A stretch of DNA of 64,000 bases, from IMG/VR virus record IMGVR_UViG_3300005098_000013, positions 14,082-78,081 of that record; one strand, 5' to 3'. The notes under the pieces are model-generated. The model was given only the letters and a program-made list of their open reading frames with translations, did no database searches and was not told where the DNA came from. Of the stretch, positions 20,244-61,028 are shown in pieces. The position numbers and the translations under genes are program-made. The stretch's first letter is position 1. Each line of letters starts with the position of its first letter. Origin of the DNA: a virus.

Positions 20244-20624
20244 ATGGGAAAGGATAGGTTTTCTATAAGAAGGGAATTAGGGATTGCAATAGCACACAAA
20301 TTACCTTGGCACTCAGGTAGATGTTCGAATATGCACGGTCACGGTCTAAAAATTGCAGTAACACTAAGCAGAAAAGATGGTGGCTTAGATGAGAATGATA
20401 TTGTATATGATCTAGGCTATCTAAAGGAAGCGTTAGATGAAATTGACGAAAGGTTAGATCACACATATCTGAACGATACTTTAGAGAATCCGACATCGGA
20501 GAATGTAGCAAAATATGTTAGAGATAAGGTAATGCAATATCTTGAAAAGAGAAAAGCCGGTGTAAAGGTGACAAAAGTAGAAGTGGAAGAGAGTCCAGGT
20601 TCAGGAGTGATACTAGAATGCTAA
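20244..20624 (+). CDS. queD: 6-carboxy-5,6,7,8-tetrahydropterin synthase
   Basis: AHKL..CSNMHGH, LDHTYLN, NPTSEN. Confidence 0.93.
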   Translation: MGKDRFSIRRELGIAIAHKLPWHSGRCSNMHGHGLKIAVTLSRKDGGLDENDIVYDLGYLKEALDEIDERLDHTYLNDTLENPTSENVAKYVRDKVMQYLEKRKAGVKVTKVEVEESPGSGVILEC

Positions 20625-21444: not shown

Positions 21445-21629
21445 TCAGAGACAAAGTGTTCTATGAGGAGTTGAGCCCAGAAGCTTATCAGAAGCTGATA
21501 AGAGTGGAGGGGGAGCTTAGGGAAGAAGGTGTAGAGACGTTTATTGAACAACTGGTAGCAGTGGCAGTAGATATGGTAGAGGAGGAAGAATGGAAAAGGA
21601 AGATAATAGAAGCAGAGAAAGAATTCTAA
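21441..21629 (+). CDS. hypothetical protein
   Basis: Overlap-coupled ORF. Confidence 0.4.
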   Translation: MIRDKVFYEELSPEAYQKLIRVEGELREEGVETFIEQLVAVAVDMVEEEEWKRKIIEAEKEF

Positions 21630-23877: not shown

Positions 23878-24893
23878 AAATAGCTCTGAATACGCCAATG
23901 TATAATAAAGAGATTGAAGAAGCTGCATTAGGAGCGTTGCGGAACGAGAGGTATGTGCTAGGCGAAAGCGTCTGGAAGTTTGAAGAGGCTTTTGCTAAGT
24001 ACATTGGAGTGGACTATGCAATATCTTGTTCTAGTGGAACAATGGCCTTTTGGCTAATACTTAATAGTCTCAAGGCAAAGAAAGTATTAGTGCCAAGCTT
24101 AACGTTTCATACAGTAGCTTCTGTAGTAAAGCTTTTAAGGAGAGAGCTGGTCTTTGGCGATGTAAATTTAGGAGATGCTTGCTTGTATAAAAGCATTCCT
24201 GATGGTTTAAGTGTAGCTACACATCTATATGGCAACTTTTGCAATGTTGCACATTTAAAAGAGGGTGTAGTAGAAGACTGTTCTCAAGCAGCAGGCCTAG
24301 AGTGGAGAGGTAAGAAAGCCGGAAGCTTTGGCAATGCTGGATTCTTCTCGTTGTATACTACGAAGAACTTATCATGTCTCGGAGACGGAGGGGTTATCAC
24401 TACTGATGATGAAAAGCTAGCTAAAGAAGCGAGGATGATAGGTGATTGCGGAAGGAACAGTGAAGGTGAGCATGTTAGAGTGGGCATTACGTCGCGGCTG
24501 AATACGGTAAATGCAGCTATTGCCTTGGTACAGTTGAAGCACTTAGATGAGTGGAACCAGAAAAGGATGGCTTTAAGAGACAGATATATGGAGAAGTTGC
24601 CTCCGGAAGTGAAAGTGTTGTCAAACGGAGTAGTGCATCAAATGGTTGCTAGAGTTAAAGGGAGAGATAAGTTGGCGAAGTATTTGAGACAGAATGGCAT
24701 AGAAACAGGTATACACTATAAGGTGCCATTGCATATGCAGAAGCCGCTTTATAGGAAAGGCTTAACGTTGCCTAACGCTGAAGTGCTTTGTGGTGAAGTG
24801 CTATCGTTGCCTATATCGCCAAGTTTGACGTTTAGAGAAGTAGATTATGTGTGTGAAAAGGTAAATGAATGGTATGGAAGTGAGAGGAGATGA
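23874..24893 (+). CDS. DegT/DnrJ/EryC1/StrS sugar aminotransferase
   Basis: SSGT, EDCSQA, SLYTTKNL..GDGG, GIHY, LSLP. Confidence 0.93.
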   Translation: MKIALNTPMYNKEIEEAALGALRNERYVLGESVWKFEEAFAKYIGVDYAISCSSGTMAFWLILNSLKAKKVLVPSLTFHTVASVVKLLRRELVFGDVNLGDACLYKSIPDGLSVATHLYGNFCNVAHLKEGVVEDCSQAAGLEWRGKKAGSFGNAGFFSLYTTKNLSCLGDGGVITTDDEKLAKEARMIGDCGRNSEGEHVRVGITSRLNTVNAAIALVQLKHLDEWNQKRMALRDRYMEKLPPEVKVLSNGVVHQMVARVKGRDKLAKYLRQNGIETGIHYKVPLHMQKPLYRKGLTLPNAEVLCGEVLSLPISPSLTFREVDYVCEKVNEWYGSERR

Positions 24894-25760
24894 ACAAGAT
24901 AAGCATAGTAATGAGTTGTAAGGAACATTTGCCGTATACACTACTGGCAGTAAAGAGACTGGTGAAATGCACAGTGAATGAGTTCGAATTGATAATCGCA
25001 AATGATTCGAGGGTATCTGTAGAGGAGACAATCAGAAAAGCCGAGCCAGGTTTAGAATTAAAAGTGTTACATGGAGGTGGCAAGAGGAATGGAGTAGCAA
25101 GAGCAAGAAACGATTGCTTCAAACAAGCGAGTTGCAATGTTTGCATTAATGTAGATAATGATGTGATAGTCACCCCAGGCTGGGATGTGCCTTTGGTAAA
25201 AATTATAGAAGAAAATCGAAAAGTTGGCTTGTTGTTGCCAATGACGAATGATATGTATTTTTTTTGAGCAGCCAGAAGTTGGTTTATTGGAACGTTGCAA
25301 TAAGTTTAAAAGGTTAAGAGCCAAGTACAAGGAAGAAGAAGGCCCAGAAAGGCTAATGGAAATAATAAACGAAACATTTGATGGGTCTCTTGATAAGTTT
25401 GCAGAAGCATATGTGAATAAAGTGAAAGGACGAGAGTTGAAGGATTATATGAATACTTGGGTGTCATATGCGGTCAGATTAGATGTGTTCAAGTATGTGG
25501 GAGGATATGATGAGAATTACAAGAAGGCAGGATATGAAGATTGGGATTTGGCAAGAAGGTTGAATATGCTTGGTTTTAGAACTGCAGTAACGTATAGTTC
25601 GTTTGTGTGGCACTGTGTGGGTACGACACGGCCGCATATAGGAGGTGCAGTAGAAGCAGAAACATCAAATGGAATATACTATAGAAAGAAGTTTAGTAGG
25701 CCAAATGTTGAGTTGAGAGGGAGTTGGGGTGGTGTAAATGAAAGAACCAACTATGTTTAA
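24890..25760 (+). pseudogene. glycosyltransferase family 2 split by a frameshift at a T8 tract (ORFs 24890-25267 and 25248-25760)
   Basis: N half has ARARN and DND; C half has GGYDE..GYEDWD..VWH; removing one T at 25258-25265 fuses them. Confidence 0.8.
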
Positions 25761-26220
25761 CGGAAAAGTAGTTGCGGGCGGAATAGAAGAGCCAAAGAGG
25801 AATTTGTTTTATTTATTGAGTATAGTGACGTATGAAATCAGTGACGTACAGAGAGATATTATTTTGGGAAGCAGTAATTTAAAACTGAGTTTGGCAGATG
25901 CTTTTACACAAGTATCGACGTTGCACAAAGAATTAAATATCAAAGAAAAACCAGGAAAGAATTCAAAAGCTAAATCGCCTGCAAACTTATTAGTATTGCT
26001 CGGTAATCTTCATAGAAGCATTGTCTACATGAAGCGCTTTCCGAGCAAAAAGGAATATCGGAAGGGTGTAAAAACACATCTTTCAAATCTTGCTGTAAGA
26101 TTGAAGGAAATATGTAAAGAACAAGGTTTCGATGAAGAAGAGGTAAGAGAATTAGGCTGGGAACATTTGAGAGAAAGGTTTAAGGAATTTGAAGAAGACG
26201 GGTGGGTAGAAATAAAATGA
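25738..26220 (+). CDS. MazG-like all-alpha protein (putative)
   Basis: YEISD...SLADAFTQ helices resemble degenerate NTP pyrophosphatases. Confidence 0.35.
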   Translation: MKEPTMFNGKVVAGGIEEPKRNLFYLLSIVTYEISDVQRDIILGSSNLKLSLADAFTQVSTLHKELNIKEKPGKNSKAKSPANLLVLLGNLHRSIVYMKRFPSKKEYRKGVKTHLSNLAVRLKEICKEQGFDEEEVRELGWEHLRERFKEFEEDGWVEIK

Positions 26221-26939
26221 GCTTATATGTAGATGTTGTGGAAGAAACAGATTTCCATAGGGCTTGGGTTTCTGCTGTGCAGATGGTATTGATGAGCGGT
26301 GCTGATTTAGTGATTGGCGGCGCAGAGGAGAGGAAGCCAATTAAGGATTCGTGTATGTTAATTACACTTGAAGGAAAGGCGATTAAGCAAGTTGAACGAA
26401 GAGAGTTGCACCCCCAATTTCCTACCAAGAAGAAGCATCTCGATAAATATTGTGAAGAGTATACAAGAAATTTTGTAGACGTCTATAGAAAAGATGAGAG
26501 CAAAGAAAAGTTTGCTTATTTATATGGAGATAGGTTGATGTATTATAAGCATCCAGTTTATATCAGTATTGACCAATTAAAGATGATGATGAACGGTTTG
26601 TATAGTCAAATGAGAAGAAACATAACTTCAAATAGGATGCAAGCAATAACGTGGTATGTACATGATGACAATGAAGGATCATCCCCTCCTTGCCTGCAAC
26701 GGATACAGATGCGCTACATTCCAGAAGGAAAAGTGGACGTGCATTTGACGTGGAGAAGCAGAGATTTGTATGCAGCTTGGCAAAGCAATGTTGTTTGCTT
26801 AATAGATATGCTGAATAGGGAAGTGATTAGGCCAAATGAATGCGAGATAATCAGAATAGTAGACTTTAGTGATTCGCTGCACATATACAGGACTGATATT
26901 GTTGAGGCAAAGAAAGTAAGGTTTATGGAGGCGTTGTAA
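26217..26939 (+). CDS. thyA: thymidylate synthase-family protein (dUMP methylase or hydroxymethylase)
   Basis: YGDRL, PPCL, WRSRD...SN, SLHIY. Confidence 0.82.
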   Translation: MSLYVDVVEETDFHRAWVSAVQMVLMSGADLVIGGAEERKPIKDSCMLITLEGKAIKQVERRELHPQFPTKKKHLDKYCEEYTRNFVDVYRKDESKEKFAYLYGDRLMYYKHPVYISIDQLKMMMNGLYSQMRRNITSNRMQAITWYVHDDNEGSSPPCLQRIQMRYIPEGKVDVHLTWRSRDLYAAWQSNVVCLIDMLNREVIRPNECEIIRIVDFSDSLHIYRTDIVEAKKVRFMEAL

Positions 26940-27352
26940 TGACAACAGAAATAGGAGATGTAGATTATCAACTTGAGTTGCTTAGAAGAGACTTAGTGGA
27001 AGAATTTGGAGAGTTTGCAAAAGGAATTGGCATCGAATGGGAAAGAGACCCGACACTTGATGGGTTGGTCATAAATGCAACGTTTACAATTGGTGCAAGA
27101 AGAACGGTATCTAATGTGGTGCTTCATTTAGAACCAACTATTTTAAAACCAATAGTAACGGAATTGGTTCATAATATTGAAAGAGCATTGTATGATATGT
27201 TACCTGTATATGGAACTGAACCACAAGTAGCAGGAGTAAGGATTAGAATTGATAGTCATTTACCAAAAGGGGTCATATGGATGCATCCGGAAGTGTATGC
27301 AAATATAATGCAGAATCCTGAACTAAGAAGGATGCTTGTGTATCAGCCATGA
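26939..27352 (+). CDS. hypothetical protein
   Basis: Overlap-coupled ORF. Confidence 0.5.
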   Translation: MTTEIGDVDYQLELLRRDLVEEFGEFAKGIGIEWERDPTLDGLVINATFTIGARRTVSNVVLHLEPTILKPIVTELVHNIERALYDMLPVYGTEPQVAGVRIRIDSHLPKGVIWMHPEVYANIMQNPELRRMLVYQP

Positions 27353-27355
27353 GAA

Positions 27356-27649
27356 ATGCCACGCAAGATAAAAAGAATAGGAAAGAACCAAACGCTGCTG
27401 TTTGTAGAGGAATCGAGTAAACCGGTGGCTGACGATACAATATTACCAGAAGCTTGGCAAACACCAGTGCCAAAGAAAAAGTATAGAGAAGGTTCGTTGG
27501 CAGATAAGATGAGGAAGGGCCTTTGGTTTGCTTGCCCAAATTGTGGAACGGAAAATATTGAGTTTGTAAGTGATGCAGCGTGGGCTTGGTTATGTAATAA
27601 AAACCAGTTTAAATGCCCGCTTTGTAACAAAATGGTAGGCTTAGAATAA
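27356..27649 (+). CDS. Zn-ribbon protein
   Basis: CPNCG ... CPLC. Confidence 0.55.
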   Translation: MPRKIKRIGKNQTLLFVEESSKPVADDTILPEAWQTPVPKKKYREGSLADKMRKGLWFACPNCGTENIEFVSDAAWAWLCNKNQFKCPLCNKMVGLE

Positions 27650-27650
27650 G

Positions 27651-28583
27651 ATGCCAATTAAAAAGGAAGAATTAGGAAAATTGAATGTAGAGTATGCAGG
27701 CTATGCAGGTTCAGTTGTAGCTCTGATTGTGCCGCTTATAAAGGAAATAGGCGGTAAATTTATTCCGTTTCCGGGAGAAGAGGCAGAAATTTTAAAAAAA
27801 TGGGATTTAGGAAGCGAAGAGTCTGCCAAGGCTAATATAACTATACAATCAGGAATAATACCGCCTGCTCAAACGATTCTGCTGCCGTATCATGGCATTC
27901 AGAAAATCTTTCCTATAGAAAAGTTTAGTTTTGTAGTTAGTCGGTGGAGTAGCTTTCCTGAAGAAGTACCGCACGTTCAAGCAGGTGTGTTAGCTTTGGA
28001 TCGGTTCTTCAATGGGAATGTACCTAGCAAAAAGGAGTTGCTTGAACCTTTGGGGCTAGAGTCTTCTGAGTTTACAATAGTTTACGCACTGGCTTGGAAA
28101 GAACGAAAAGATGCAAGCTCGAGCGCAAGAAAGATGGAATCATGGATAAGCCACCTGCCTCCGGAAGTTAATTTAATCATCATAAACCACCCCCTTTACA
28201 AATATAACCCGGGGTTCAGAGAAGAGCTCATGTCAATTAAGCAAGGAAAAAACATGAGAGTGATATATGATCAAAAAGACACTTTTGAATGGTTAAACAT
28301 TGCAGATTTAATTGTTTGTGATTCAGGTTCAGCCATTGTATTGAACACTCCTTGTTTCAAGGCACCAGTCTTACAGATTAGGTATCCGTATCATTATCAC
28401 CTTGGTTATGACTATTCCTGGGCTGTTGAAGTAGGGCCGGAAGAGATTCCGGATCGCATCTTTACAGATTTTATGGGAAATAGGAAGGTTGCGATTGAAG
28501 AGTATTTGTATAAGTTTGATGGAAAGGCAACTGAAAGGGCTGTAAAAGGGATAAGAGAGTTTTTGGAGGAGTTGGAAAAATGA
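27651..28583 (+). CDS. CDP-glycerol glycerophosphotransferase (TagF)-like GT-B protein
   Basis: HG, IVYALAW, HP, ADLIVCDSGS, DGKATER. Confidence 0.65.
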   Translation: MPIKKEELGKLNVEYAGYAGSVVALIVPLIKEIGGKFIPFPGEEAEILKKWDLGSEESAKANITIQSGIIPPAQTILLPYHGIQKIFPIEKFSFVVSRWSSFPEEVPHVQAGVLALDRFFNGNVPSKKELLEPLGLESSEFTIVYALAWKERKDASSSARKMESWISHLPPEVNLIIINHPLYKYNPGFREELMSIKQGKNMRVIYDQKDTFEWLNIADLIVCDSGSAIVLNTPCFKAPVLQIRYPYHYHLGYDYSWAVEVGPEEIPDRIFTDFMGNRKVAIEEYLYKFDGKATERAVKGIREFLEELEK

Positions 28584-29125
28584 TTTCGTGGTTGTTGTTA
28601 ACTTGGAATTCTGCAAACTCTATAAGGACTGCATTAGAGTCAGCCAAGGATTTAGTAGATGAAATAGTTGTGGTAGATTCAAACTCAACTGACGAAACTT
28701 TAGATATCTTAGACGAGTATGACGCGAAGGTGTATACAAAGGCATTAGAAAAGTCATGGAGCGAACTGAGAAACTTTGGAATTAGCAAAGCCAGTTATGA
28801 GTGGATACTTGTGTTGGATTCAGATGAGTATTTGACGAAGGAGACATTATTGATGATTCCAAAATTAGTGGAAAGCGATGAGGTAGATGCTTTTATATTC
28901 AGGAGGCTAAATTATTTGGACGGTGTGCTTCAAGAAGCAAAAGATTATCATTATAGGCTGTTTAAGAGACACTGTAGATATGCAGGGCGAATACATGAGC
29001 AGTTAGTTGGATTTAAGAAGTCTAAAGTAATAGAAGATGCAATCGTAATGCATAAGAAAACTTGGAAGAAACAGAAGGAGCAGGATGAGAGATATTTGGA
29101 GTTCACAAAAGAGAGAAAGAAATGA
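28580..29125 (+). CDS. glycosyltransferase family 2
   Basis: VVVDSNSTDET, RNFG, WILVLDSDE, GRIHE. Confidence 0.92.
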   Translation: MISWLLLTWNSANSIRTALESAKDLVDEIVVVDSNSTDETLDILDEYDAKVYTKALEKSWSELRNFGISKASYEWILVLDSDEYLTKETLLMIPKLVESDEVDAFIFRRLNYLDGVLQEAKDYHYRLFKRHCRYAGRIHEQLVGFKKSKVIEDAIVMHKKTWKKQKEQDERYLEFTKERKK

Positions 29126-29997
29126 AAATAGGAGTTGTGGGGGCGTTAGGATACCAAGGCAGAAAGCATGCAGTGGAATTGCTTGGCTTAGGTGTAAGAG
29201 TGGAAACGTGTGATGTGCGAGGCAATGTGAGATATAGAGACTATGTGGAGATAGGAAACTTAGATGGTGTAGTAATAGCAGTGCCTAATGGAAAGCACCT
29301 TGAAATCGGAGAATGGTTTATAAGGAAAGGTGTACCAGTGTTAATGGAAAAGCCTTTGACAAAGAGATATGATTCGGCCGAAGCGTTGTTGAACTTAGCT
29401 AAACTGAATAGGTGTGTTCTGGCAACAGGCTCGGTGTTTTCTTTTAATAATAGCGTAAAGGTAGTTGGTGAGATAGTCAAGGGAGGGCTTTTGGGAAGGC
29501 TAGAGTTTGTAAAGTGTAATTGGTGTAGTCAAATGGTGCCTTGGGCAGAAAAGAATATACTTTTGGATCTCGGCCCACACCCTTATGATATTCTTTGTGG
29601 CTGGAATTTGGAACCAGAAGAGTATGATTCTTATGCAATCAACAACAAGCATATGCTGATTTTCACAGGATCTAAAAGCGTGGAGATTGAAATAAAATTG
29701 TCTTGGGTAGAAGGACCTAAGGAGAGAAGTTTAAAGGTTGTTGGGGAGAAGTATGTGCTTGTATTAGATGCATTAAATCAGAATGTGTTTGTATATGAAG
29801 GGAATGAACTAGTTGCACAAAAAACACATGATGAAGGTTTGTATAAGAAAGGTTTCGAAGATTATCTTCAGTTTAACAGGAATAATACGTTGAAGGATGA
29901 GTTGAAAGATTTTCTAAGGCAAATAGAAGAAGGTGCTGACTATAGGTTGGCAGAGCAAGCAGTAAGGTTTTTAAAGTGGAAGGGAAGCGAAAGATGA
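29122..29997 (+). CDS. Gfo/Idh/MocA oxidoreductase
   Basis: GALGYQG Rossmann, MEKP, DLGPH. Confidence 0.88.
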   Translation: MKIGVVGALGYQGRKHAVELLGLGVRVETCDVRGNVRYRDYVEIGNLDGVVIAVPNGKHLEIGEWFIRKGVPVLMEKPLTKRYDSAEALLNLAKLNRCVLATGSVFSFNNSVKVVGEIVKGGLLGRLEFVKCNWCSQMVPWAEKNILLDLGPHPYDILCGWNLEPEEYDSYAINNKHMLIFTGSKSVEIEIKLSWVEGPKERSLKVVGEKYVLVLDALNQNVFVYEGNELVAQKTHDEGLYKKGFEDYLQFNRNNTLKDELKDFLRQIEEGADYRLAEQAVRFLKWKGSER

Positions 29998-30173
29998 AGA
30001 AAAGAAAGATAAGAAGCGTTATTGATGTAGAAAAGGCATTAGAAGAGAAGAGAGCAATGCAAAAGCAATATGTACGAGAGCACGGTTACCGCTCTTATAT
30101 ATTAGATTTGCTGATTGAACATTTCGAAGAGATGCAAAAAAGGAGCAAAGAAAATGAAAATAGAGGAGATTGA
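29976..30173 (+). CDS. hypothetical protein
   Basis: Short ORF in operon. Confidence 0.4.
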   Translation: MEGKRKMKKRKIRSVIDVEKALEEKRAMQKQYVREHGYRSYILDLLIEHFEEMQKRSKENENRGD

Positions 30174-30504
30174 AAAGCAACTTGAGACAAAAGAAAGAAT
30201 AGAGTATAAGGGCAAGTGTCATGAATGTGGCAAAGATGTTACAGTGTGTATTTTCAGGAATGAAGAAACTGGAACGATAACAATAGAAGGTGGAGCGGTG
30301 TATGATCCAATGGTTGGCTCGCCTCCTGAAAAGCAGATATTCCTTAAATGCGACGATTGTTTCGGAGATGATCCGGTGTTACGAAATTATCGGCCCTGCG
30401 AAGTTTATTCGCGTTCTGTTGGCTACCTTAGGCCAGTTCAACAGTGGAACGCAGGGAAGCAAGAAGAATTTAGGCAGCGAAAGGAGTTTGTAGTAAAGGA
30501 GTAG
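30115..30504 (+). CDS. Zn-finger plus NrdD C-terminal glycyl-radical domain (stand-alone)
   Basis: CHEC..CDDC; [28 protein letters not shown]. Confidence 0.75.
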
Positions 30505-30511
30505 AAGAAAA

Positions 30512-31507
30512 ATGGGAAGGAGAAGTTTGATAACTGGCATTTCGGGTCAGGACGGGAGCTACTTAGCAGAGTTTTTGTTGGAAAAAGGATATGAAGTATA
30601 CGGCTTGGTAAGAAGATCGTCAAACAGACCTGCAAACTTGAGTAGAATAGAACATATTCTTGATAAGGTAACATTGCTGGAAGGTGACTTGTCTGATCAA
30701 GCTTCATTAAATGACGCTGTAAAAAAAGCAGAGCCAGATGAAGTGTATAACTTAGGCGCGCAAAGTTTTGTAGCACATTCATGGAAGGCACCTGTGTATA
30801 CAGCAGATGTAACTGGGCTTGGCACAATAAGGATGTTGGAAGCTATACGCAATTGTGATGCCGGATCGATTAAATTCTACCAAGCGTCGAGTAGTGAGAT
30901 GTACGGAAACAACAATGAATTGCCATTAAATGAAGGATCTAGATTCTATCCAAGAAGTCCGTATGCATGTGCAAAGGTGTATGCTCATTATTCTACGATT
31001 AATTATAGAGAGTCATATAACATGTTTGCATGTTGCGGGATTTGTTTTAATCATGAATCGGATCGAAGAGGTGAAGAGTTTGTAACGAGGAAGATAAGTC
31101 AAGGCGTTGCTAGGATAAGTTTAGGATTGGAAAAGTATATTGCGTTAGGGAATTTGAAGGCTAAGCGAGACTGGGGTTTTGCTGGAGATTATGTAGAGGC
31201 AATGTGGCTAATGTTACAACAAAGCAAGCCTGAAGATTTTGTAATAGCGACAGGAAAAGGTTATGGTGTAGAAGATTTTGTAAAGGTTGCATTTAGAACA
31301 ATAGGCATTGAAGATTGGAAAACTTATGTAAGACAGGATCCTAAATTCATGAGGCCAGCTGATGTGCCAAGTTTGATTGGAAATTATAGCAAGGCAAAGA
31401 AGAAGTTAGGGTGGAAGCCAAAAGTAAAATTCGAAGAGTTGGTAAGGATGATGGTAGAAAGTGATGTTGAAAAATTAAGACAAAATGAAGCGCCTGTTTT
31501 AAAATAA
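30512..31507 (+). CDS. gmd: GDP-mannose 4,6-dehydratase
   Basis: [41 protein letters not shown]. Confidence 0.96.
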
Positions 31508-31713
31508 ACGAAGAAAGGACCAGCAAACTTGTCACTGGTCTTTGTTCTCCGTTTTGTCTTCGGGCAAGTAATATAAATGCTTACGACGAAGCCTAAGGCA
31601 GAAGGCAAATGTTTATGACACAGATGCACTGCTGGCCCGAAGACAAAACGGAGAACAAAGAACCAATGACAAATTTACCAGCGCCTTCTTCGTTTATTTA
31701 GAAGAACAGGTGC
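31490..31713. repeat. inverted pair of approximately 76-bp hairpin elements
   Basis: 31490-31565 and 31635-31713 are reverse complements with a perfect 26-bp core. Confidence 0.85.
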
Positions 31714-31725
31714 GAAACCAAGCGT

Positions 31726-32178
31726 ATGGAAGAATATTTCATGAGGTACAGGAAAATAATAGATTGTGAAGTAGGATGGAACACTAAGATAGGTGACTTT
31801 GTAGATCTCTATAGATGCAAAATAGGCAACTACTGCAAAATTCATAGCTTTGTGTTCATAGAAGAAGGCGTCGTAATAGGTGATAGGTGTATAGTGAAGC
31901 CACATGTGTTCATTCCTACTGGCGTTGTCATTGAAGATGATGTGTTTATAGCACCCGGAGTAGTTTTTGTAAATGACAGACATCCGAAAGCGAATAATGA
32001 TAAGTGGAGGCTTGAGAAGACGGTAATAAAGAAAGGCGCTTCTATAGGAGCTAATGCAACGATTATGTGTGGCCTTAGTATCAATGAAGAGGCAATGATA
32101 GGTGCAGGTGCTGTTGTGACTAAGGATGTTGAGGCTAAGGCTGTAGTAGTAGGCAACCCTGCAAAGAAAGTTAGGTAA
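31726..32178 (+). CDS. hexapeptide-repeat sugar N-acetyltransferase (WbpD/WxcM-like)
   Basis: LbH repeats, VFVNDRHP, GASIGANATI, VVGNPAK. Confidence 0.9.
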   Translation: MEEYFMRYRKIIDCEVGWNTKIGDFVDLYRCKIGNYCKIHSFVFIEEGVVIGDRCIVKPHVFIPTGVVIEDDVFIAPGVVFVNDRHPKANNDKWRLEKTVIKKGASIGANATIMCGLSINEEAMIGAGAVVTKDVEAKAVVVGNPAKKVR

Positions 32179-32193
32179 AGGAGAAAAAAGAAA

Positions 32194-32646
32194 ATGGAAG
32201 AAGTTGAAGATTGGCATAAGAACGTGTATGGTAAGAAGGAAACCGCAAAATTTACTTCATTATATTACCGTAATAGAAGCAAAGTTATAAGAAGGGATAA
32301 TCACGAGTGTCAGTCTTGTTTCAAAAAATTAGGGAAGTCAGAGAATAGCGTACACCATATTGAGCCGAGAGAAGATGGAACAGATGAAATGTCAAACTTA
32401 ATACTTTTATGTAAAAAGTGCCATGACGAAATTGAAGGGTTATCAAGGTTGCAAATCATTGGATATTTTTATCAATCAACCGGTAATTATACTAAACCAT
32501 GTTGGCCAGCAGATTGGCATAAGTGGGTTTACGGTGCTGAAGAAAATCCGTACAATGACCCGCTTTTCATAAAGCTTCGAATGAACGGCGAACTGGTTAG
32601 AATAGGAGAGTTGTGGTGGCACAAAAAATTTAAATTTTGCCAATGA
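32194..32646 (+). CDS. HNH endonuclease
   Basis: RDNHECQSC..VHHI..NLILLCKKCH. Confidence 0.88.
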   Translation: MEEVEDWHKNVYGKKETAKFTSLYYRNRSKVIRRDNHECQSCFKKLGKSENSVHHIEPREDGTDEMSNLILLCKKCHDEIEGLSRLQIIGYFYQSTGNYTKPCWPADWHKWVYGAEENPYNDPLFIKLRMNGELVRIGELWWHKKFKFCQ

Positions 32647-48169: not shown

Positions 48170-49006
48170 TTAAGCATGTACACCTGTGATTTCGATTCCT
48201 GCGTCTGCCTGCACTACTTTAGGCTCTGCAAACTTTGCGATTGCGTAGCCAGTGTAGAACGCAGCATTGCCTGAATACTTCTGAACCATGCTTGGACCGT
48301 CTCCGAGAACAAGAGCTGGCGCCTCTGTGGCAAGTACAAAGCAGCTGGTATTTGGTGTAATGGCTACATCCGTAAGCACCTTAAGTCCGCAATAAGTAGG
48401 AACCTCGCCCTTGACCATCATATTGCGTTCCATTTGCTTTCTTACATAGTCGTTACTCACCAAATCTGCCCACACTAATGGATTCATTGCCAGGTAAGTA
48501 GGCTCGTAACCCTTATCCAGGTTGATCATAGTAGCAATCGCTTCCATTACATCGTCTGAAGGGTCGTTATCTCCGCCCCAATCAGAACCTGTTTGGTTTG
48601 CAAAGCCAGTTGGAAGCACACTTGCAATGTCTTCGTTTTCCATCTGCGCGATTGCACCGGCCGCGTCCTTGACGTTCGAGGCTAAGATGTCACCTACGAG
48701 ATTCTTTTTCTTTCCTGCCTCATAGCTGATTGCTATGTGTACAACGTTCTTGCCGTACGCTTCAAGATCGAAATGAACCCATGTATATGCCTCCTTGCTC
48801 AGCTCTGCTTCTTTGAGTGGCGGTACATGCTTGATACCAGCCAATCTAGTCGCAACTGGCATGTCACCTAAAAGGTCTGGCATTTTTATGACTCTGCAAA
48901 GCTCGCGTAGTTTATACTTGTTTCTCGCTAGCCCAAGAACTTCAGACACCACTACTTTGGCCTCTATGTCTTCTATATCCGCTACATCTATAAATCCTGT
49001 TGGCAT
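48170..49006 (-). CDS. major capsid protein (HK97 fold)
   Basis: Position; YEPTYLAMNPLVWADL, TYCGLKVL. Confidence 0.8.
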   Translation of the reverse strand: MPTGFIDVADIEDIEAKVVVSEVLGLARNKYKLRELCRVIKMPDLLGDMPVATRLAGIKHVPPLKEAELSKEAYTWVHFDLEAYGKNVVHIAISYEAGKKKNLVGDILASNVKDAAGAIAQMENEDIASVLPTGFANQTGSDWGGDNDPSDDVMEAIATMINLDKGYEPTYLAMNPLVWADLVSNDYVRKQMERNMMVKGEVPTYCGLKVLTDVAITPNTSCFVLATEAPALVLGDGPSMVQKYSGNAAFYTGYAIAKFAEPKVVQADAGIEITGVHA

Positions 49007-50273: not shown

Positions 50274-53200
50274 CTAAGCTGCTGGCTTTTCTATTATACA
50301 CTCTGCACATGCTGGTGCTTCCGTTAGGGTAAGCTCCACATACTCTTTAATCTGTTTCACTACCTTCTTGGTTCTGTCTACATTAAGCAGCGCATCTATA
50401 GAGTAACCCTTTGCTTTTTTCTTTGCGAATTCAATGCCTTCAGGATCTGTAATTAGCGAGACCACTTCTATATTATCACCGTTTAAGGTTACTTTAGTCG
50501 GCTTTCCAACTTCCTTTTCGCGTATGTGTTCTATGCAGACTGGAATATCCATGATTCTTTCAGGCCTGTCCCTGACTACTTCAGGCGGAAAGTACCAATT
50601 GTTCCAAACACCGGAGCTAAGAGCAATGCCTGGCACTTCAAGACCTTCTTCGGTTTCTTTGAACGGTGAAGAGAATGGGATAAAAGACATTTGGACAAAT
50701 TCTTCTTCAGATTCTGTAGAAGGCACCTCTTCAGAACGTTCAAAATTCCACACTCCTTGTGGTGTAGAACGCTTCATAATCCACATGCCTTTGAGACCAG
50801 AAGCAAAGTTGAATTTCTTGAAAAGCTTATCATCCTGAAGTATATTTACTTTGCCCTTCACATGTGTGATAAGAAAAGCAGGTGTGTTTGGTTTTTCATT
50901 TTCAGGTGTGCCTGGTTTTAATTCGACCTCTTTCTTGAATTCCTTCCAGAATTGCGGGCGCAACACGTTTGTTTCTTCACGAGCGTTCATAGATGATTCT
51001 TTTAGCGGGTCTTTATCTAGCCTGAATTGCATCTTTCCAATCTTCAAGTCATACTCTTCATAAGTCGGGCCTTCACGAACTATATAAGGGCCTCGATACC
51101 ACCTGTGCTGAATTATGAAATCCTCAGCAGCCTCTTGCACTTCCTTTTGAGTAAGCAAATCTATTTCTCTTTCAGAAAGTTTACTCTTAATTTCATTCCA
51201 AAGCTTTTCGTACGTTTCAGACTTCTCTTCTGATACACTATATACCATCTTGCCTGCTTGGATACGCCTTGCAATTTCCTTGTATATCTTGACTGCAACC
51301 CCTTCAATTTCTTCTTTTGTGTACTTAATACTTTTGTGTGGATCTAAAGCAGTAGCATACCAGCCTACTGAAATTCTTGCATCGTCCATAAGTTGTTGAT
51401 TAGTCATGTGTTCTGGATCATATGTGCTTATATCTTTGATAAGCTCAAGCCTCTTTTCCTTGAAATACTCAATGAGCTCTGCTCTTTTTTCCTGTGCAGC
51501 ATCACCGCTTGATTCCCAGAACCTTAACTCCTGTGGCACCTTATTTTTGATTTTTTTAGGTAAAGCCGAAATTCCGTGAGGTGGTAGCCAACCAGTTCGT
51601 CGAGCTCTTGCAGAAAGAACATAAGGGGTTTGATCTTCAGGCTTTGAGAAGAACCAAATGAATGCTGGACGCTTATTATATGGATTAGGAATGAGAGTTG
51701 CTACAAAACGGCCTTTGTATTTACGACCATGCAAGAAATATTCTGCCATGTGTGATTTCTTAGAGCCGTGCTCAACTCTGCCTTTGTCATCGATTACAAA
51801 CACACCTTCTTTTTCCTTAGTCGCACCGACTTGTCCTTTAGGCACCGTGCCTTCAACTGTTAACCAAGGTTTGGGTTCAGGTGCTTTTTTTATGGCTTGA
51901 ACTTTGAAAAACTCATCATCCGTTTTCCACTTCGACGCGCGAACTACTTTTTTAGCTTCTGACAGGCTGTCGACATCCTCCTTGATCTCACCTTCTATTT
52001 GGTTCAGGAGAGTGAAGCCTTCGAGATGATCGTTTGCTTCCACACGAAAGTCTACATGAACTGACTTGCCTCTGAAGTGGTACTGGACCACGAAGTTATA
52101 AGTCTTCTCTTCAGACGGATACCGAGCCAACATCAGAGGTAACTTTTCACCTTCGGAAAGCTCAATGGAAGACAGGCCCTGTGATTCTTTTATTTCATCT
52201 AAAGTTTCCTGGCGCTGAAATTCCTCTTGGAGATCTTGCATTGATTCAACTTGCTTAAAACTTACATCCTTGAGAGAGTCGAGCATTTCATGAAAGTCTG
52301 TATTTATCAAAAAAGCTCTGCTATAAAGAACTACTTCCTTGATATTGTATTTCTTAGCTGACTCTTCAATAAGCACTTGCCATTCTGCCAAATTCATGTC
52401 GAAGAAATCATAGTTCTCAACTTCTACCCAACTTGGTACCAGTCCGTATTTTCTTGAGAGCACTACATAGGGAATGTTGTGAGCCTCACAAAAACTGATA
52501 AAGTTGTGAATCGGCTTTGAAGGAGACCAAAGTTGTTTTGGTGTGCCGCTACGGATTTCCTTGTTCTTTGGCGCAGCACACATAATAGCTGCAAACTTGC
52601 CTGCGGCCAACTTCTTCTCCTCAAGCAGATCTGACTTCTCTGCAATGTCTAATGCTTCTTTAGTTGTATCTGGGAAACGCTGTTGCGGGCGAAGCTCATA
52701 GAATCTGGGTTCGTAAATCCTAATTCTGTCACCTTTTTCACTATGATACCAAAAAAGAGTGTGGAAGATTACTGTAACAATATCACCCGGATTGCAAAGC
52801 GTTGCAGTATTGAACGTCTTGCCTATGTAGACATAATTGGCATCTTTGACCTTGCAGAGGTCTGCTTCCTGGGGTTGAAAGTCTGAAGTTGCTTTAAGGC
52901 CAACTTCATATACATACACACCCTTTGTTGCCGTTTCGATACGCTTAAGCACTGCAACGTGCAATTCACTTACAACCTTGTACTTGGCCCATTCACTGGT
53001 CATACCCGTGAGTGGATAAGTGGAACTCATTAGTTTGACCATTGAGCCTTCTGACCCTTCAAGCTTAGACACTCTTTCCACTTCTTTCCTGATTTCAGAT
53101 TCAGTTGTGGCAGTGTGTGAGACAAGACGGTTGAAGTGCGAAATGCTAGGTTTCGGTAATTCATCTTTGGCTTGTCCCAAGTCTATTAAATCTAAATATT

Positions 53201-53876
53201 GATGCCTGACGCGAAGTTCTTCGTTATGAAGATCGCCAATCTCGGTGTCTAAGTTATGCTTTTCTAATTTAGGGTCGCTAAAGTAAAGAATATCAAACAC
53301 ATTTGCCACAATATGTGAATCGTTCGGCTTGTCTTTCTTATTGACATAGCCTGAAACCGTTTCGCGGCCTTGATGAATTCCGTTTTCATAGCCTTCTGTT
53401 TCACTGTCTAGCAGGAACGTTTCAACCGGGATTTTTTTGAGCTGATCAACAGCTTTTGGAAACCTACTAGTTCTGTCTTCACCAGATTCTAGGAAGACCT
53501 TTATCTTGTCTTTATGCTTCCACCATAATACTCTAAGGCCATCAGCTTTTCGTTCAACTGAAACTGGACAAATAGTGCCTTTGCATGCATGTTTTATTAT
53601 ATCTAATAGGTCAGGAATGTTGTACGCTTCGTTCTGCCGGTAGCCCTTAACACCTTTAAGAGCTTGGATAGTTTGCAATGGTTTTATAGCTTTAAACGTT
53701 TCGTTCTCTTCCAAAATAAGCTGCTTTATTTCAACCCAGTCTGCTTGCGTTCCAACTGAAGGCTTTTCGATTTGCTCTTCTACAAGCTGAAGTATGTCAT
53801 CTGACTTACTTAACGTACTGGCTACTTCTGGCTTAAACCTAATACCAGCTTCCTTCAACTTGTCTTCCAAAACCAT
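50274..53876 (-). CDS. multidomain protein: ATP-dependent ligase + DUF6884-like + LigD phosphoesterase-like x2 + prohead protease
   Basis: Ligase KADG, LDSE, VFDIL, EGSMVK, WAKYK; LSRKYGLV; FVVQYH..HVDFR; protease IEH, GYSID, ELTLTEAPA. Confidence 0.85.
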   Translation of the reverse strand: MVLEDKLKEAGIRFKPEVASTLSKSDDILQLVEEQIEKPSVGTQADWVEIKQLILEENETFKAIKPLQTIQALKGVKGYRQNEAYNIPDLLDIIKHACKGTICPVSVERKADGLRVLWWKHKDKIKVFLESGEDRTSRFPKAVDQLKKIPVETFLLDSETEGYENGIHQGRETVSGYVNKKDKPNDSHIVANVFDILYFSDPKLEKHNLDTEIGDLHNEELRVRHQYLDLIDLGQAKDELPKPSISHFNRLVSHTATTESEIRKEVERVSKLEGSEGSMVKLMSSTYPLTGMTSEWAKYKVVSELHVAVLKRIETATKGVYVYEVGLKATSDFQPQEADLCKVKDANYVYIGKTFNTATLCNPGDIVTVIFHTLFWYHSEKGDRIRIYEPRFYELRPQQRFPDTTKEALDIAEKSDLLEEKKLAAGKFAAIMCAAPKNKEIRSGTPKQLWSPSKPIHNFISFCEAHNIPYVVLSRKYGLVPSWVEVENYDFFDMNLAEWQVLIEESAKKYNIKEVVLYSRAFLINTDFHEMLDSLKDVSFKQVESMQDLQEEFQRQETLDEIKESQGLSSIELSEGEKLPLMLARYPSEEKTYNFVVQYHFRGKSVHVDFRVEANDHLEGFTLLNQIEGEIKEDVDSLSEAKKVVRASKWKTDDEFFKVQAIKKAPEPKPWLTVEGTVPKGQVGATKEKEGVFVIDDKGRVEHGSKKSHMAEYFLHGRKYKGRFVATLIPNPYNKRPAFIWFFSKPEDQTPYVLSARARRTGWLPPHGISALPKKIKNKVPQELRFWESSGDAAQEKRAELIEYFKEKRLELIKDISTYDPEHMTNQQLMDDARISVGWYATALDPHKSIKYTKEEIEGVAVKIYKEIARRIQAGKMVYSVSEEKSETYEKLWNEIKSKLSEREIDLLTQKEVQEAAEDFIIQHRWYRGPYIVREGPTYEEYDLKIGKMQFRLDKDPLKESSMNAREETNVLRPQFWKEFKKEVELKPGTPENEKPNTPAFLITHVKGKVNILQDDKLFKKFNFASGLKGMWIMKRSTPQGVWNFERSEEVPSTESEEEFVQMSFIPFSSPFKETEEGLEVPGIALSSGVWNNWYFPPEVVRDRPERIMDIPVCIEHIREKEVGKPTKVTLNGDNIEVVSLITDPEGIEFAKKKAKGYSIDALLNVDRTKKVVKQIKEYVELTLTEAPACAECIIEKPAA

Positions 53877-53887
53877 CCTCTTTTCAT

Positions 53888-54178
53888 TTACTCCTGCTGC
53901 TCGTTGGGTTGCTCTTCAGATTGTTTGCCGCTTTTCAGGCCACGTTTTTCCATCTCTGCCTTGACCTTATTATGTATCTCTTCCCACTCTTCCTTGCTAA
54001 ACACCTTTGCTTCGGGCATCTTTAGATACCTAAAACACATCAGGTTTGCAGCCTTGAGCTGATCGTCCTCGAACTTACTAAAGTCCGCATCTTTGAGCTC
54101 TTCTACTTTAAACAGCGCAGCCTCTTCTTCCACTCTACTATACTTAATACCATGCTTTTTCAGTTCCTCTTCTATCAT
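53888..54178 (-). CDS. small helical-module protein
   Basis: FSKEEWEEIHNKVKAEMEKRG resembles segments of both neighbouring proteins. Confidence 0.65.
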   Translation of the reverse strand: MIEEELKKHGIKYSRVEEEAALFKVEELKDADFSKFEDDQLKAANLMCFRYLKMPEAKVFSKEEWEEIHNKVKAEMEKRGLKSGKQSEEQPNEQQE

Positions 54179-54197: not shown

Positions 54198-55751
54198 TTA
54201 AATCGCCTCCGATAATTTTTGTAATGTAGGCGAATCATCACGTTGTTCAATACTTAAGCCTTCCGTAATTCTCCTTACATCCTCTTCTGTGGCTGTTTTC
54301 TCGCGAAGAGGTAACCAAATTTCTTTGAGAATAAATGCTTGTTTCTCTTCTAGTGAACTTAGTGATTTGAAGGCGTCGACCAGAGCTTGTTTCTTCTTGA
54401 TGAGTTCTGGCGTATCTGTTTCCTTAGGAATCACTTGTCCTTCTTTAAGTTTTATTGGCTTCTCATCAGGATCTTCTGGTAAGTAGAGCTGGCCGTAGAT
54501 GCTGCTCCAAATATAGCTCATGCTGTCTACTGAATTGAAGCCGTAAAGATTTAGATATTTAAAAACATGAGGGTTTTCGACTCCTAAAGCATGGATTTCG
54601 ATTCCTTGATCTTTTATTTCGTCTAAGATGCCTAATTCTTGAAGCCGCTGCATTGCAAAGACACGTTGCGGTAAACCTCGTGAAGGGTAACCTGCGACTT
54701 GAATACTCTTCCGTCCTATGCCTATAATATCTGGGTTGAGCTTGATAATTTCTCGAATGCAAGCCTCGAACTTGAACGCCGATTGCCCCTGGCCAATCCC
54801 CATAACCTTGCATTCTGGCTTCATATTCAGAAACTCTCTCTGAGCCTTTATCGACTTCTTATCTGAGTCTATATCATACAAGAAATCCGGTGCACATACC
54901 ACATCTGCCTCTACTAGTTTGGAAGCTTCCAGTAGCTGAGATGGCGTTAGCGTTTTGTCGCTGAATGCGCCATTGTCCAGCATTACTCTTATACCAGAAG
55001 CTTTCCAAGCTTTAGCATTTTGAATCTGCTTAGTACTGAGATTGTAAGCGTTGAGCATGACGCCGTCGCAGTAGTCTAAAAGTGGCTCTTGTGCACCTAC
55101 CAGATACAAGTGGAGTTTGTGTGATTGCTCAACTCTTTCTAACGGAAGAATGGGCTGGCATTCCAAAGTTAAAGCAGGCACATGAGAAGTAACTGGACCA
55201 CTTTGAGTAAATTCCGGATTGTCATATAAGAAGTGGATGCGATCCTGAAGCTCTGGAGGAAAGAGTCTGAAAACACGGAAAGCTGTAACCCTGGCGACTG
55301 GATCGTTTTCGCTTGCTTTTATGAGTATGTCTATATCGCCTGTCGTACTGCCATGATTCACTATGCCACCAGTTAGATAGACAAAAGGATGTGCGAGTTT
55401 GACTGGTTTGATATATTGAAGTACATCATCTAAAAAAAGCATTTCCCCGTTCTCATTGTGCTGGGCTGGTTGACCATAGTCTGCACTAAGTTTGGTTGTA
55501 TCTAAGTCATCTATGTTTTGTGGGCGAATGCCTTCTTTTGCCATCGCTTCCAGAAGAAGCTGATAAAGATTCCATATGTCTTCTTTACTCCAAGATTCTC
55601 CATGCTCGATGAAGCTGCCGGTACGCTTTTCAATATGCCATGCTAAATGGAGCCATGCATATACTTCTTGGAGTTCTTCTTTAGAAAGAGAGGAAACGTC
55701 TAAGTCTTTGCTAACTCGAAGTGCCCCTTCCAATGTAAGATCCGAGCTCAT
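54198..55751 (-). CDS. Pol beta-type nucleotidyltransferase fused to TGT/DpdA-like barrel
   Basis: YLTGGIVNHGSTTGDIDIL; VMLDNGAFS, APD, MGIGQG, IHALG, SVDS. Confidence 0.75.
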   Translation of the reverse strand: MSSDLTLEGALRVSKDLDVSSLSKEELQEVYAWLHLAWHIEKRTGSFIEHGESWSKEDIWNLYQLLLEAMAKEGIRPQNIDDLDTTKLSADYGQPAQHNENGEMLFLDDVLQYIKPVKLAHPFVYLTGGIVNHGSTTGDIDILIKASENDPVARVTAFRVFRLFPPELQDRIHFLYDNPEFTQSGPVTSHVPALTLECQPILPLERVEQSHKLHLYLVGAQEPLLDYCDGVMLNAYNLSTKQIQNAKAWKASGIRVMLDNGAFSDKTLTPSQLLEASKLVEADVVCAPDFLYDIDSDKKSIKAQREFLNMKPECKVMGIGQGQSAFKFEACIREIIKLNPDIIGIGRKSIQVAGYPSRGLPQRVFAMQRLQELGILDEIKDQGIEIHALGVENPHVFKYLNLYGFNSVDSMSYIWSSIYGQLYLPEDPDEKPIKLKEGQVIPKETDTPELIKKKQALVDAFKSLSSLEEKQAFILKEIWLPLREKTATEEDVRRITEGLSIEQRDDSPTLQKLSEAI

Positions 55752-59546: not shown

Positions 59547-61028
59547 CTACACTACGACCTTCACTATTCCTCTTGCACCGAAAGATTTGCGAAAAGCCGG
59601 AGAGTGAACGCTGGTAATTCTGGGAATTGGAGAAATACTGAAGGTGCCTGCAGCTGAAACTGCATTGGCTAAGGCATCTGCGACGTCTTTGCTACCTGTC
59701 TTTCTATGATCTACCTTAGTACCGCGAATTAGTTCCAGTTCTTTGAGTTCCTTTACCAAAATGGGGCTTAGATAGAAACTTATCATGTCACTATAGATAA
59801 GTTCCTTAAGCCTGTCGTGTTCCTTCTTCTCCGTATGGTTCTGAACCACTCTAATTCCAGCCTTTTCTATTTTCTGCAAGGTCTCAGGATAATTCCACAC
59901 ATCTGTTGTGAAGCTTACAATCCCTGGAAACCTTTCTGCTATGTCTATAATAAACTGTGCCACTTGGAACGCATCAATTTCGCGTCGCCCTGAAGGCGCA
60001 AAACGATGGACTAGGTCTACTATGCACTTATGATCACTGAAGTGCACAAGAGCCAGGCCAAAGGCATCGTTCTTCACTGCCGGATCACCTGCCAAAAAGT
60101 AGCGTTGTTCAGGAGAAGTTTGCCTGAACCATTCTGCCATGCTTCCATCAGGCAAGATGGGATCTGGCCTGAGAGGATCGATGCATTTATCTATGCTTTG
60201 CGGATCCTTGTAGTAGTTTTCTATGACTAGGCTGGGCTCTGCACCATAGTCTCTTTGAGCCATGTCGGGATTCTTTTGAAACTCAGGTTCGAGAGACTCG
60301 CGCGTGATGTTAGGGTTCACTAACCATGTAGGTAATTGATACCCCAGCATATATTCTGAATGCTTTGACATCTCATAGAGTGTCATGATTACGTCGTCTA
60401 CAGTTACTGGCGATGATATAGATACTATAAGACCTTCATTACCAAAAGTCTTTACTGACCTAGATAATGAATGATAGACATTCCAACCTGAAGCGTTGCC
60501 TTTTGTATCTTTGAACCTTGCCAGCTCATCAAAGAGAACCAGTTTTGCAGTGTGGCCTACTAAGCTTGAAGAGTTAGCGTGCGCACTTCTTATTATAACA
60601 TTGGGATCTGGAAAGATGAGTTCATTGTATCTTTCTTTACATTCACCAGTTTCGATTAGACTTTTGAAATAAGGAGAGTGATGAACCAATTCCTTGTCAG
60701 CCGCAAATACAGTATCGGACGCCTGCTCTTTTGACGTCGCGGTGTTTATGATAAAGATAGCCTGGCCTGGTGCTAAGTTATAGTGTTCAGCAGGGTTGCC
60801 AAGTTGGATTAGTTTGAATGTCTCATACAAACTAATAACTGCAGCCAACCTTGTCTTGCCACTTCTCATTCCACAAATTGCCACAAGCTCATTATAAGGA
60901 CCCTTGTAGAATTCTTCCAAAATTTCTGCTTGCTTAGGGAAAAGCTTGAACTTGAGAATGTAATCTACGAAGTAAAGAGGGTCTAAGGTTGCCTTGAGCT
61001 CCTTCCTGAAATCCGAAGTCAGGCTCAT
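59547..61028 (-). CDS. terL: terminase large subunit
   Basis: Q motif FPKQ, Walker A GMRSGKT, Walker B LVLFDE, ISSP, nuclease GDPA and KDVADA. Confidence 0.93.
   Translation of the reverse strand: MSLTSDFRKELKATLDPLYFVDYILKFKLFPKQAEILEEFYKGPYNELVAICGMRSGKTRLAAVISLYETFKLIQLGNPAEHYNLAPGQAIFIINTATSKEQASDTVFAADKELVHHSPYFKSLIETGECKERYNELIFPDPNVIIRSAHANSSSLVGHTAKLVLFDELARFKDTKGNASGWNVYHSLSRSVKTFGNEGLIVSISSPVTVDDVIMTLYEMSKHSEYMLGYQLPTWLVNPNITRESLEPEFQKNPDMAQRDYGAEPSLVIENYYKDPQSIDKCIDPLRPDPILPDGSMAEWFRQTSPEQRYFLAGDPAVKNDAFGLALVHFSDHKCIVDLVHRFAPSGRREIDAFQVAQFIIDIAERFPGIVSFTTDVWNYPETLQKIEKAGIRVVQNHTEKKEHDRLKELIYSDMISFYLSPILVKELKELELIRGTKVDHRKTGSKDVADALANAVSAAGTFSISPIPRITSVHSPAFRKSFGARGIVKVVV

Follow-up and report, generated by a model that had tools for sequence, protein, structure and literature searches.

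The enzyme taken as the hallmark of 7-deazaguanine modification in DNA is DpdA, which comprises five known subfamilies. The one closest to the protein described here is DpdA3, the set formed by proteins of Cellulophaga phage phiST (CGPG_00065), Campylobacter phage CP220 (gp056) and Flavobacterium phage immuto_2-6A (gp206) (Cui et al. 2023, PMC10516641); DpdA4 (DUF6610; Halovirus HVTV-1 gp69) is likewise a divergent branch and belongs to archaeal tailed viruses. In the bacterial DpdA of Salmonella Montevideo (7UI4), catalysis relies on D95 as general acid/base and on D256 as nucleophile; F99 and L236 make the stacking contacts to the base, which is recognized by D130 and H181 (PMC10164549). We have analyzed a stretch of 64,000 nucleotides (the window), corresponding to bases 14082–78081 of the 78,081-bp IMG/VR virus record IMGVR_UViG_3300005098_000013, whose completeness is estimated at 86%. 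Directly behind the portal gene it contains a 517-aa open reading frame (ORF) with three modules: an N-terminal helical module (NH), a predicted minimal nucleotidyltransferase (NT) and a C-terminal barrel of the TGT superfamily. The barrel is DpdA3-like and very probably catalytically competent.

The division into modules follows from the five closest homologues (P0002–P0006), which match the flanking parts at about 80% identity and lack residues ~93–208, the NT region. The GC content of the insert equals that of its flanks, and composition thus gives no sign of a recent foreign origin. Our AlphaFold (AF2) model is based on an alignment of 148 sequences and has a mean pLDDT of 85 (above 90 in the barrel, 80–93 in NH, 66–83 in NT); it superseded a first model from seven sequences, which was unusable (pLDDT 49.5).

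Affiliation and fold of the barrel

Searched against 1.8 billion proteins, the family profile retrieved 365 relatives at E≤1e-3, with eight clusters below 1e-30 plus about 350 proteins of ~260 aa at E-values down to 7e-14. This number of relatives and the recurrence of the NT module with the same signature in 35 viral loci speak for more than chance. The ~260-aa proteins match the three phage proteins named above, which are annotated 'DNA guanine transglycosylase'. A joint family profile found DpdA (7ui4, E 7e-7) and ArcTGT (1iq8, E 7e-5) in the PDB, and PHROG 887 ('queuine tRNA-ribosyltransferase') matches the barrel with an E-value of 1.6e-7. Among the 148 aligned relatives, weak matches were seen to DUF6610 (14 sequences), Pfam TGT (two) and Pfam DpdA (one). 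Nothing usable for the identity of the whole protein came from Pfam, NCBIfam or single-sequence PDB searches; a profile from seven sequences had no match in the PDB, tblastn of the barrel none among cultured phages, and a PADLOC scan found nothing. Pfam TGT (PF01702) matches neither the 517-aa protein nor, at E≤10, the 78-kb record, Pfam DpdA (PF23859) has no match in the record, and the NCBIfam DpdA model NF041059 reaches an E-value of 0.16 on the 517-aa protein (10.7 bits versus a cut-off of 200). The protein also differs from DpdA4 in that PF20314 (DUF6610) matches neither it nor the rest of the record.

All 49 matches listed by Foldseek against the PDB are TGT or DpdA structures, with E-values of about 1e-10. 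An independent scan of 48,161 chains (VIA-align) ranked ArcTGT 1iq8 first (Z 19.5 over 265 aa at 3.5 Å), followed by DpdA 7ui4 (Z 18.6), TGT 3unt (Z 18.1) and QTRT2 6fv5 (Z 16.3); generic TIM barrels reach Z 15.8 at most and lie below all TGT-family chains. The same TIM barrel is present as in Salmonella DpdA, TGT and ArcTGT (7UI4, 3UNT, 1IQ8; Z 18–19.5), at 13–15% identity and below the Pfam and NCBIfam cut-offs. Among viral structures (BFVD), phiST M4SLA5 (259 aa, the length of CGPG_00065) matched with an E-value of 1.4e-11 and a TM-score of 0.75 normalized to the target; DpdA3 is the nearest family by profile and by viral structure. Profile searches, the AF2 model and two structure searches thus agree on a TGT/DpdA-type barrel in the C-terminal ~300 aa, as the first-pass annotation of the sequence had proposed, and the six barrel motifs quoted there are all present in the order given.

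ArcTGT, the top structural match, is less than one Z unit away from DpdA and hence tied with it, and the genome has a tRNA-Leu gene. Both facts would be compatible with a barrel that modifies or damages host or viral tRNA, a reading that we nevertheless consider extremely unlikely. The barrel has neither a PUA nor a C-terminal tRNA-binding domain and differs from bacterial DpdA and TGT in lacking their C-domains and their zinc Cys/His cluster: no Cys or His is found in residues 410–517, which leaves no zinc site, and the motif CxCxxC is absent from all 163 family sequences. Moreover, the closest sequence relatives are phage DpdA3 proteins rather than cellular TGTs, and the neighboring modules are all DNA enzymes. 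Host tRNA had been suggested as a target beforehand; we found nothing pointing to it.

In an unrooted FastTree phylogeny of 163 barrels without TGT outgroup, the 15 head-module sequences form one clade (support 0.91), and stand-alone copies and the named DpdA3 proteins are scattered through the other radiation. By sequence, the head-module barrel is best called a sister or an outlier of DpdA3. It shares with that family the signature DNG-x-F, PD, QG, C, G, R, H-x-LG, DS, the absence of a zinc cluster and the occurrence in viruses carrying 7-deazaguanine synthesis genes. It differs in its separate clade, an identity of only ~20%, a helical C-terminal extension of ~100 aa and the N-terminal NH and sometimes NT modules; furthermore, its gene belongs to the head operon and does not adjoin que genes, is in some cases fused to that of a ligase polyprotein, and coexists with a conventional copy. 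Inteins or LAGLIDADG inserts are found inside the head-module barrel gene of the relatives P0011, P0014 and L048.

Active site and proposed base exchange

The active-site residues of the barrel are D259, F263, D289, Q321, L389 and D409. Five of them are the same residues as in DpdA, and Q321 is a glutamine as in TGT. In hhalign and HMM alignments D289 falls on D143 and D409 on D264 of E. coli TGT (the latter equivalent to D280 of Z. mobilis). The spacing of D259-x3-F263 equals that of D95 and F99 in Salmonella DpdA, and L389-x19-D409 equals L236/D256 (20 residues). General acid, nucleophile, base-recognition aspartate, stacking Phe/Leu pair, and the HLLG and S-x-DS motifs thus line up with bacterial DpdA and TGT. 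Conservation across the 148 aligned relatives is at least 90% for D259, N260, P288, D289, G344, R363, H387, L389, G390 and D409; the active-site positions are invariant in the 15 head-module sequences and 89–99% conserved in the DpdA3-like set. The first-pass annotation had made its reading depend on a TGT-type barrel and a catalytic aspartate pair. Both were found, and the reading survives.

A non-catalytic barrel, which merely binds 7-deazaguanine DNA or the free base as a sensor, tether or structural part, would suit a second, very divergent paralogue with a family-specific extension of ~100 aa at its C-terminus; the head-module family and the stand-alone paralogue of the virus share 19% identity (hhalign probability 99.1%). 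However, no substitution is seen at the two catalytic aspartates or at any base-contact position in 15 sequences whose identity has fallen to 34–44%. Such invariance would not be expected of a dead enzyme, and we regard a purely binding role as very improbable.

We propose that the head-module protein is an accessory, late-expressed DpdA paralogue that exchanges guanine for preQ0 in DNA, a statement to which we give, as a whole, an even chance. The barrel would flip guanine out of double-stranded viral DNA, D259 would protonate and expel the base, and D409 would form a covalent deoxyribosyl-enzyme intermediate, to be resolved by preQ0 or a close derivative. D289 and Q321 may hold the base, with F263 and L389 stacking on either side of it. 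PreQ0 would come from the virus itself via FolE2, QueD, QueE and QueC. We infer DNA as the substrate, and the identity of the base, from the context: a full preQ0 pathway and co-occurrence with QueC in three of three informative genomes favor 7-deazaguanine insertion into DNA. Main insertion would be the task of the smaller stand-alone DpdA3-like paralogue of the replication module. As to timing, the head-module copy would be produced together with the portal protein and a giant ligase protein and may modify or top up DNA late in infection, around packaging, perhaps in other sequence contexts.

The window holds all four preQ0 genes (FolE2, QueD, QueE and QueC; Table 1); QueF was not found in the record. 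The stand-alone paralogue is encoded just upstream of the family B polymerase (PolB) gene, 4.4 kb from queD. It falls within the DpdA3-like radiation of the unrooted tree and is probably the main DNA transglycosylase (insertase) of the virus. At the position equivalent to Gln-321 it has a histidine (motif AHG), comparable to H181 of bacterial DpdA, and DNS replaces DNG. The first-pass annotation had set the ~33 kb between the 517-aa gene and queE against the usual clustering of DpdA with que genes. The distance is confirmed, as queE lies 32.8 kb away, but it is less odd in view of the second DpdA3-like gene close to queD. A 515-aa ORF adjoining the FolE2 and QueC genes was also considered as a DpdA candidate and proved to be an intein-bearing MCM-like P-loop protein.

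All three records with a head-module barrel and enough sequence (G000, G003 and G006, G003 being a complete relative of 88.9 kb with terminal repeats) also hold QueC and a stand-alone paralogue. Four complete relatives that lack QueC have no barrel of any kind, and G023 has QueC and the stand-alone copy without a head-module barrel. This pattern, drawn from few genomes, points to the head-module copy being an accessory that occurs only in genomes already possessing the 7-deazaguanine pathway. In G023, the record of locus L039, the stand-alone DpdA3-like gene beside QueC (31514–32239) has one in-frame TGA, and two of the four QueC-like matches are fragments.

Several points weigh against the proposed exchange. 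The curated TGT, DpdA and DUF6610 models all stay below their cut-offs, and family membership thus rests on transitive profile links and on predicted structure. The zinc subdomain of TGT is missing, and the equivalence of D259 comes from the motif pattern (D-x-G-x-F and the D-to-F spacing), not from a residue-level structural alignment. Few genomes underlie the co-occurrence counts, which lack phylogenetic independence, and why a second copy is kept finds no explanation in the data. No DpdA3 or DpdA4 enzyme has been shown to be active in vitro or in E. coli (PMC10516641), so that the substrate of the reference family is itself inferred. Finally, DpdA3 relatives are fused to deoxynucleoside kinase (P0025, P0027; L017, L018), and thymidylate kinase or MazG genes adjoin DpdA3 in CP220, immuto and phiST, the thymidylate kinase gene lying within ~1 kb of DpdA3 in CP220 and immuto. 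These are hints that part of the DpdA3 family may act on nucleotides instead of DNA.

The nucleotidyltransferase and the ligase giants

NT contains G128-G129, nine residues, and D139-x-D141, which is the GG-x9-DxD motif noted in the first-pass annotation, and a third acidic residue, D177. It thereby shows the Pol-beta pattern hG[GS]-x9-13-DxD plus a third carboxylate, and in the model the predicted order of elements (strand, GG, helix, strand with DxD, helix, strand) fits the Pol-beta core. Structure matches of the segment in the ESM Atlas are NTP_transf_2/Polbeta clusters (TM-score 0.5–0.62), in addition to a viral cluster with an S78 protease (TM-score 0.69). Both the GG and the DIDIL motif are at least 80% conserved in 36 NT modules. 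Pfam NTP_transf_2/Polbeta gave no match at E≤1 for four NT modules, an NT profile gave nothing significant in the PDB, and a word-index search returned the query alone. Atlas structures and conservation nonetheless support the motif as part of a real, conserved Pol-beta-like module.

The NH module recurs, at times doubled, at the head of the enzyme units of related loci and has no identity in Pfam or the PDB. A 96-aa ORF downstream of the 517-aa gene is a free-standing NH-like module. A relation to T4 endonuclease V was considered for NH and rejected, as the Pyr_excise matches of two relatives are sub-threshold and a profile of 13 NH sequences found no endonuclease V in the PDB; PPR 'matches' in the PDB profile search are an artefact of a 13-residue repeat. 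In L004 (11840–11920) and L003 (9230–9298) the end of the barrel ORF, just ahead of its stop codon, is the N-terminal half of an NH module ('LSDRELHHLHHLMHVAW'), and in L003 this ORF overlaps the next one by 31 nt; the half module could be a truncated module or a recoding site.

Downstream of the 96-aa ORF the window encodes a 1200-aa giant with an ATP DNA ligase (LIG), a LigD-type 3'-phosphoesterase (PE) and a C-terminal domain (CTERM). The modules were mapped in 35 IMG/VR loci (L019–L053) with home-made module profiles. In 31 of the 35, NT is encoded in one ORF with LIG and/or PE: it is N-terminal to the ligase in 24 and followed by the phosphoesterase in seven. One further locus has the ligase in the next ORF, and in three, as in the window, NT precedes the barrel. 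The block of enzymes always lies between the portal and major capsid genes, in several layouts. L020, L022 and L023 encode NH-BARREL-NT-LIG-PE-CTERM as a single protein of 1652–1681 aa, and in P0009 and P0013 the barrel is likewise joined to NT, LIG, PE and the C-terminal domain in a single polypeptide. NH-NH-BARREL is followed by NT-(LIG)-PE-CTERM in the next ORF in L021 and L024, and NH-NT-BARREL by LIG-PE-CTERM in L025, L019, L048 and the window. An NT query found no match in the giant of the window, whereas NT precedes the ligase in relatives.

These permuted layouts and the lack of NT in the window's own giant identify the 'fusion' of NT and barrel as module shuffling in what is effectively one head-module super-gene. 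The two are indeed joined in one ORF, as first reported, but NT sits between the N-terminal helical module and the barrel, and the notion of NT as the barrel's partner does not hold. On sequence grounds we reassign NT to the ligase-phosphoesterase unit and not to base exchange. It would have landed in the 517-aa ORF through shuffling, remaining outside the base-exchange chemistry, and would normally be the N-terminal partner of ATP ligase and 3'-phosphoesterase in a LigD-like unit for end healing and sealing. The giants resemble LigD of bacterial NHEJ (polymerase, 3'-phosphoesterase and ligase) in joining a nucleotidyltransferase, an ATP ligase and a phosphoesterase. Unlike LigD, they use a Pol-beta-type minimal nucleotidyltransferase of ~115 aa instead of an AEP polymerase, sit in a viral head module and end in a protease-like domain. 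Head-module giants of this type (NT, ATP ligase, LigD phosphoesterase, a variable part and a C-terminal His/Ser domain) range from 600 to 2300 aa, and four complete genomes that have them have no que genes.

The recurrent fusion of the barrel to NT, LIG and PE, together with the conserved catalytic motifs of NT and ligase (the motif residues of the latter being invariant), could also be explained by a single pathway of excision and replacement. The barrel would then be mainly a DNA glycosylase, with water resolving the intermediate, or an enzyme acting on nucleotides, as the kinase and MazG associations of DpdA3 might suggest; the phosphoesterase would clean the 3' end, NT would add a nucleotide and the ligase would seal. 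We consider this improbable. NT-LIG-PE giants without any barrel are found in 27 of the 35 loci, including four complete genomes, which indicates that this unit has a function of its own. Furthermore, the barrel retains every residue needed for base exchange, a minimal nucleotidyltransferase of 115 aa lacks domains for template binding, an AP-lyase was not identified, and the hint of an endonuclease V in NH failed.

The C-terminal domain of the giants is conserved over ~190 aa, with an invariant histidine (H115) and serine (S157) in 11 sequences and a terminal 'NPA' motif. It is a candidate prohead protease, as a lead only: the matches (Atlas S78, score 0.85; PHROG protease, E 0.0076; Pfam S78_2, E 0.05) are all below every significance threshold, and its profiles found no match in the PDB. 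S78 and S78_2 scans of the record gave no significant match, and no other prohead protease is detectable there. If the lead is correct, barrel protein, NT, ligase and phosphoesterase might enter the procapsid via the protease-like domain or NH and be ejected with the genome; they would then mend the entering DNA or modify it anew, or else target host nucleic acid, drawing on the preQ0 pool that archaeal hosts keep for archaeosine. The position of the block between portal and capsid genes and the Atlas S78 cluster with its NT-like domain are in line with such a packaged kit, as is the covalent union of the barrel with NT, LIG, PE and the C-terminal domain in L020, L022, L023, P0009 and P0013. 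Genome position by itself is no proof, however, and the barrel protein of the window is made on its own, from an ORF that ends in a double stop codon. Since the protease reading draws on position, the absence of another protease and sub-threshold matches, packaging of the barrel is a hypothesis, and a rather unlikely one; it is stronger for the relatives with the covalent link.

The first-pass annotation had inferred a base exchange coupled to packaging, or an injected effector. Support for either comes from the late-operon position and the polyprotein fusion in relatives. It is doubtful, yet conceivable, that the capsid delivers a polyprotein of DpdA-like barrel, NT, ligase and phosphoesterase which is released by maturation cleavage and acts on the genome at the portal during packaging or is ejected into the next host. 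If true, the virion would carry a 'modify and mend' kit, and a physical coupling of base exchange to head assembly would be seen for the first time. In L004 (11921–12676) and L003 (9268–10080) the giant ORF opens with a domain of ~250 aa carrying 'SPPCSGLSKAGAW', which is reminiscent of motif IV of C5-cytosine methyltransferases and may represent a second DNA-modifying enzyme recruited to the polyprotein; a PDB search with the N-terminus of the L004 giant ('SPPCSGLS', the C5-methyltransferase-like motif) found nothing.

Genomic setting and significance

The 517-aa gene is translationally coupled to the portal gene. Its start ATG (55751–55749) overlaps the portal TGA (55750–55748) as ATGA, in agreement with the overlap described beforehand, a ribosome-binding site (GGAGGT) lies 9 nt upstream of the start, and the ORF terminates with TAA TAA. 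Shine-Dalgarno sites precede each ORF of this tight head operon, including the 96-aa and 1200-aa ORFs, and from terminase through tail every gene is on the minus strand. The features of the window are compiled in Table 1.

Table 1. Features of the window (positions in the window, 5' to 3').
Feature	Position	Strand	Evidence or remark
QueC	6390-7133	-	Pfam QueC, E 3.7e-61
FolE2-type GTP cyclohydrolase	7154-7981	-	GCHY-1, E 1.2e-56
MCM-like P-loop protein	7995-9542	-	mini-intein interrupts after 'APPGF'
628-aa protein, intein and LAGLIDADG domain	12560-14446	+	
Stand-alone 237-aa DpdA3-like paralogue, replication/que module	15143-15856	+	A2 (DpdA3-like) profile, E 2.3e-31, full length
QueD	20244-20624	+	Pfam PTPS, E 1.6e-27
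QueE	20806-21444	+	Pfam Radical_SAM, Fer4_12
Glycan-synthesis cluster	21590-31507	+	directly downstream of queE
Major capsid gene	48170-49006	-	
1200-aa giant: ATP DNA ligase, LigD-type 3'-phosphoesterase, C-terminal His/Ser domain	50274..53876	-	Pfam DNA_ligase_A_M, E 7e-14; NCBIfam LigD_PE_dom, E 5e-4
96-aa ORF, free-standing NH-like module	53888..54178	-	aligns with NH modules; NH part of A2 profile weak, E 0.03
517-aa three-module ORF ('HM' protein: NH, NT, DpdA-like barrel)	54198..55751	-	no internal stop
Barrel, aa 209-517: TGT-superfamily TIM barrel, ~100-aa helical C-terminal extension	54201..55127	-	
NT, aa 95-212: putative Pol-beta-superfamily minimal nucleotidyltransferase	55116..55469	-	G128-G129, D139-x-D141, D177
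NH, aa ~10-82: helix, beta-hairpin, helix	55506..55724	-	AF2 pLDDT 80-93
Portal protein gene, 419 aa	55748..57007	-	Pfam Phage_portal, E 5.9e-16; PHROG portal families
Terminase gene	59547-61028	-	

The best full-length matches of the PolB are proteins of haloarchaeal tailed viruses (24–25% identity), and the window also encodes an ERCC4 nuclease, the FolE2-type cyclohydrolase and the intein-bearing MCM-like protein. Together these suggest an archaeal tailed virus, a host assignment best given as probable; the lineage would consist of uncultured, probably archaeal tailed viruses of ~80–90 kb. The glycan-synthesis cluster comprises two GT4 glycosyltransferases, a DegT aminotransferase, a GDP-mannose 4,6-dehydratase and others.

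Magroviruses are archaeal tailed viruses with terminally redundant genomes of ~100 kb that encode MCM and PolB, and a distinct family of ATP-dependent ligases together with a LAGLIDADG insert was found 'unexpectedly' in their structural module (Philosof et al. 2017, PMC5434244). Each of these traits recurs in the window and its relatives, a likeness in traits and not a statement of kinship. A difference is that PMC5434244 mentions no TGT/DpdA-like module, nucleotidyltransferase module or queuosine-pathway genes. A search of the literature turned up no report connecting magroviruses with 7-deazaguanine genes, nor any of a DpdA encoded in a head module.

Our analysis adds a divergent clade to the DpdA enzymes in an unprecedented setting, a head-morphogenesis operon in which the gene is coupled to that of the portal protein, and would add tailed viruses of an uncultured and probably archaeal lineage to those with 7-deazaguanine in their DNA. 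It further defines a widespread viral NT-ligase-phosphoesterase giant (35 IMG/VR loci) that is LigD-like with a Pol-beta-type nucleotidyltransferase, and suggests that the polyproteins of head modules take up enzymes for modifying DNA in addition to those that mend it. For the virus itself, it raises the question why two insertases are kept, which may differ in sequence context, base, timing or location.

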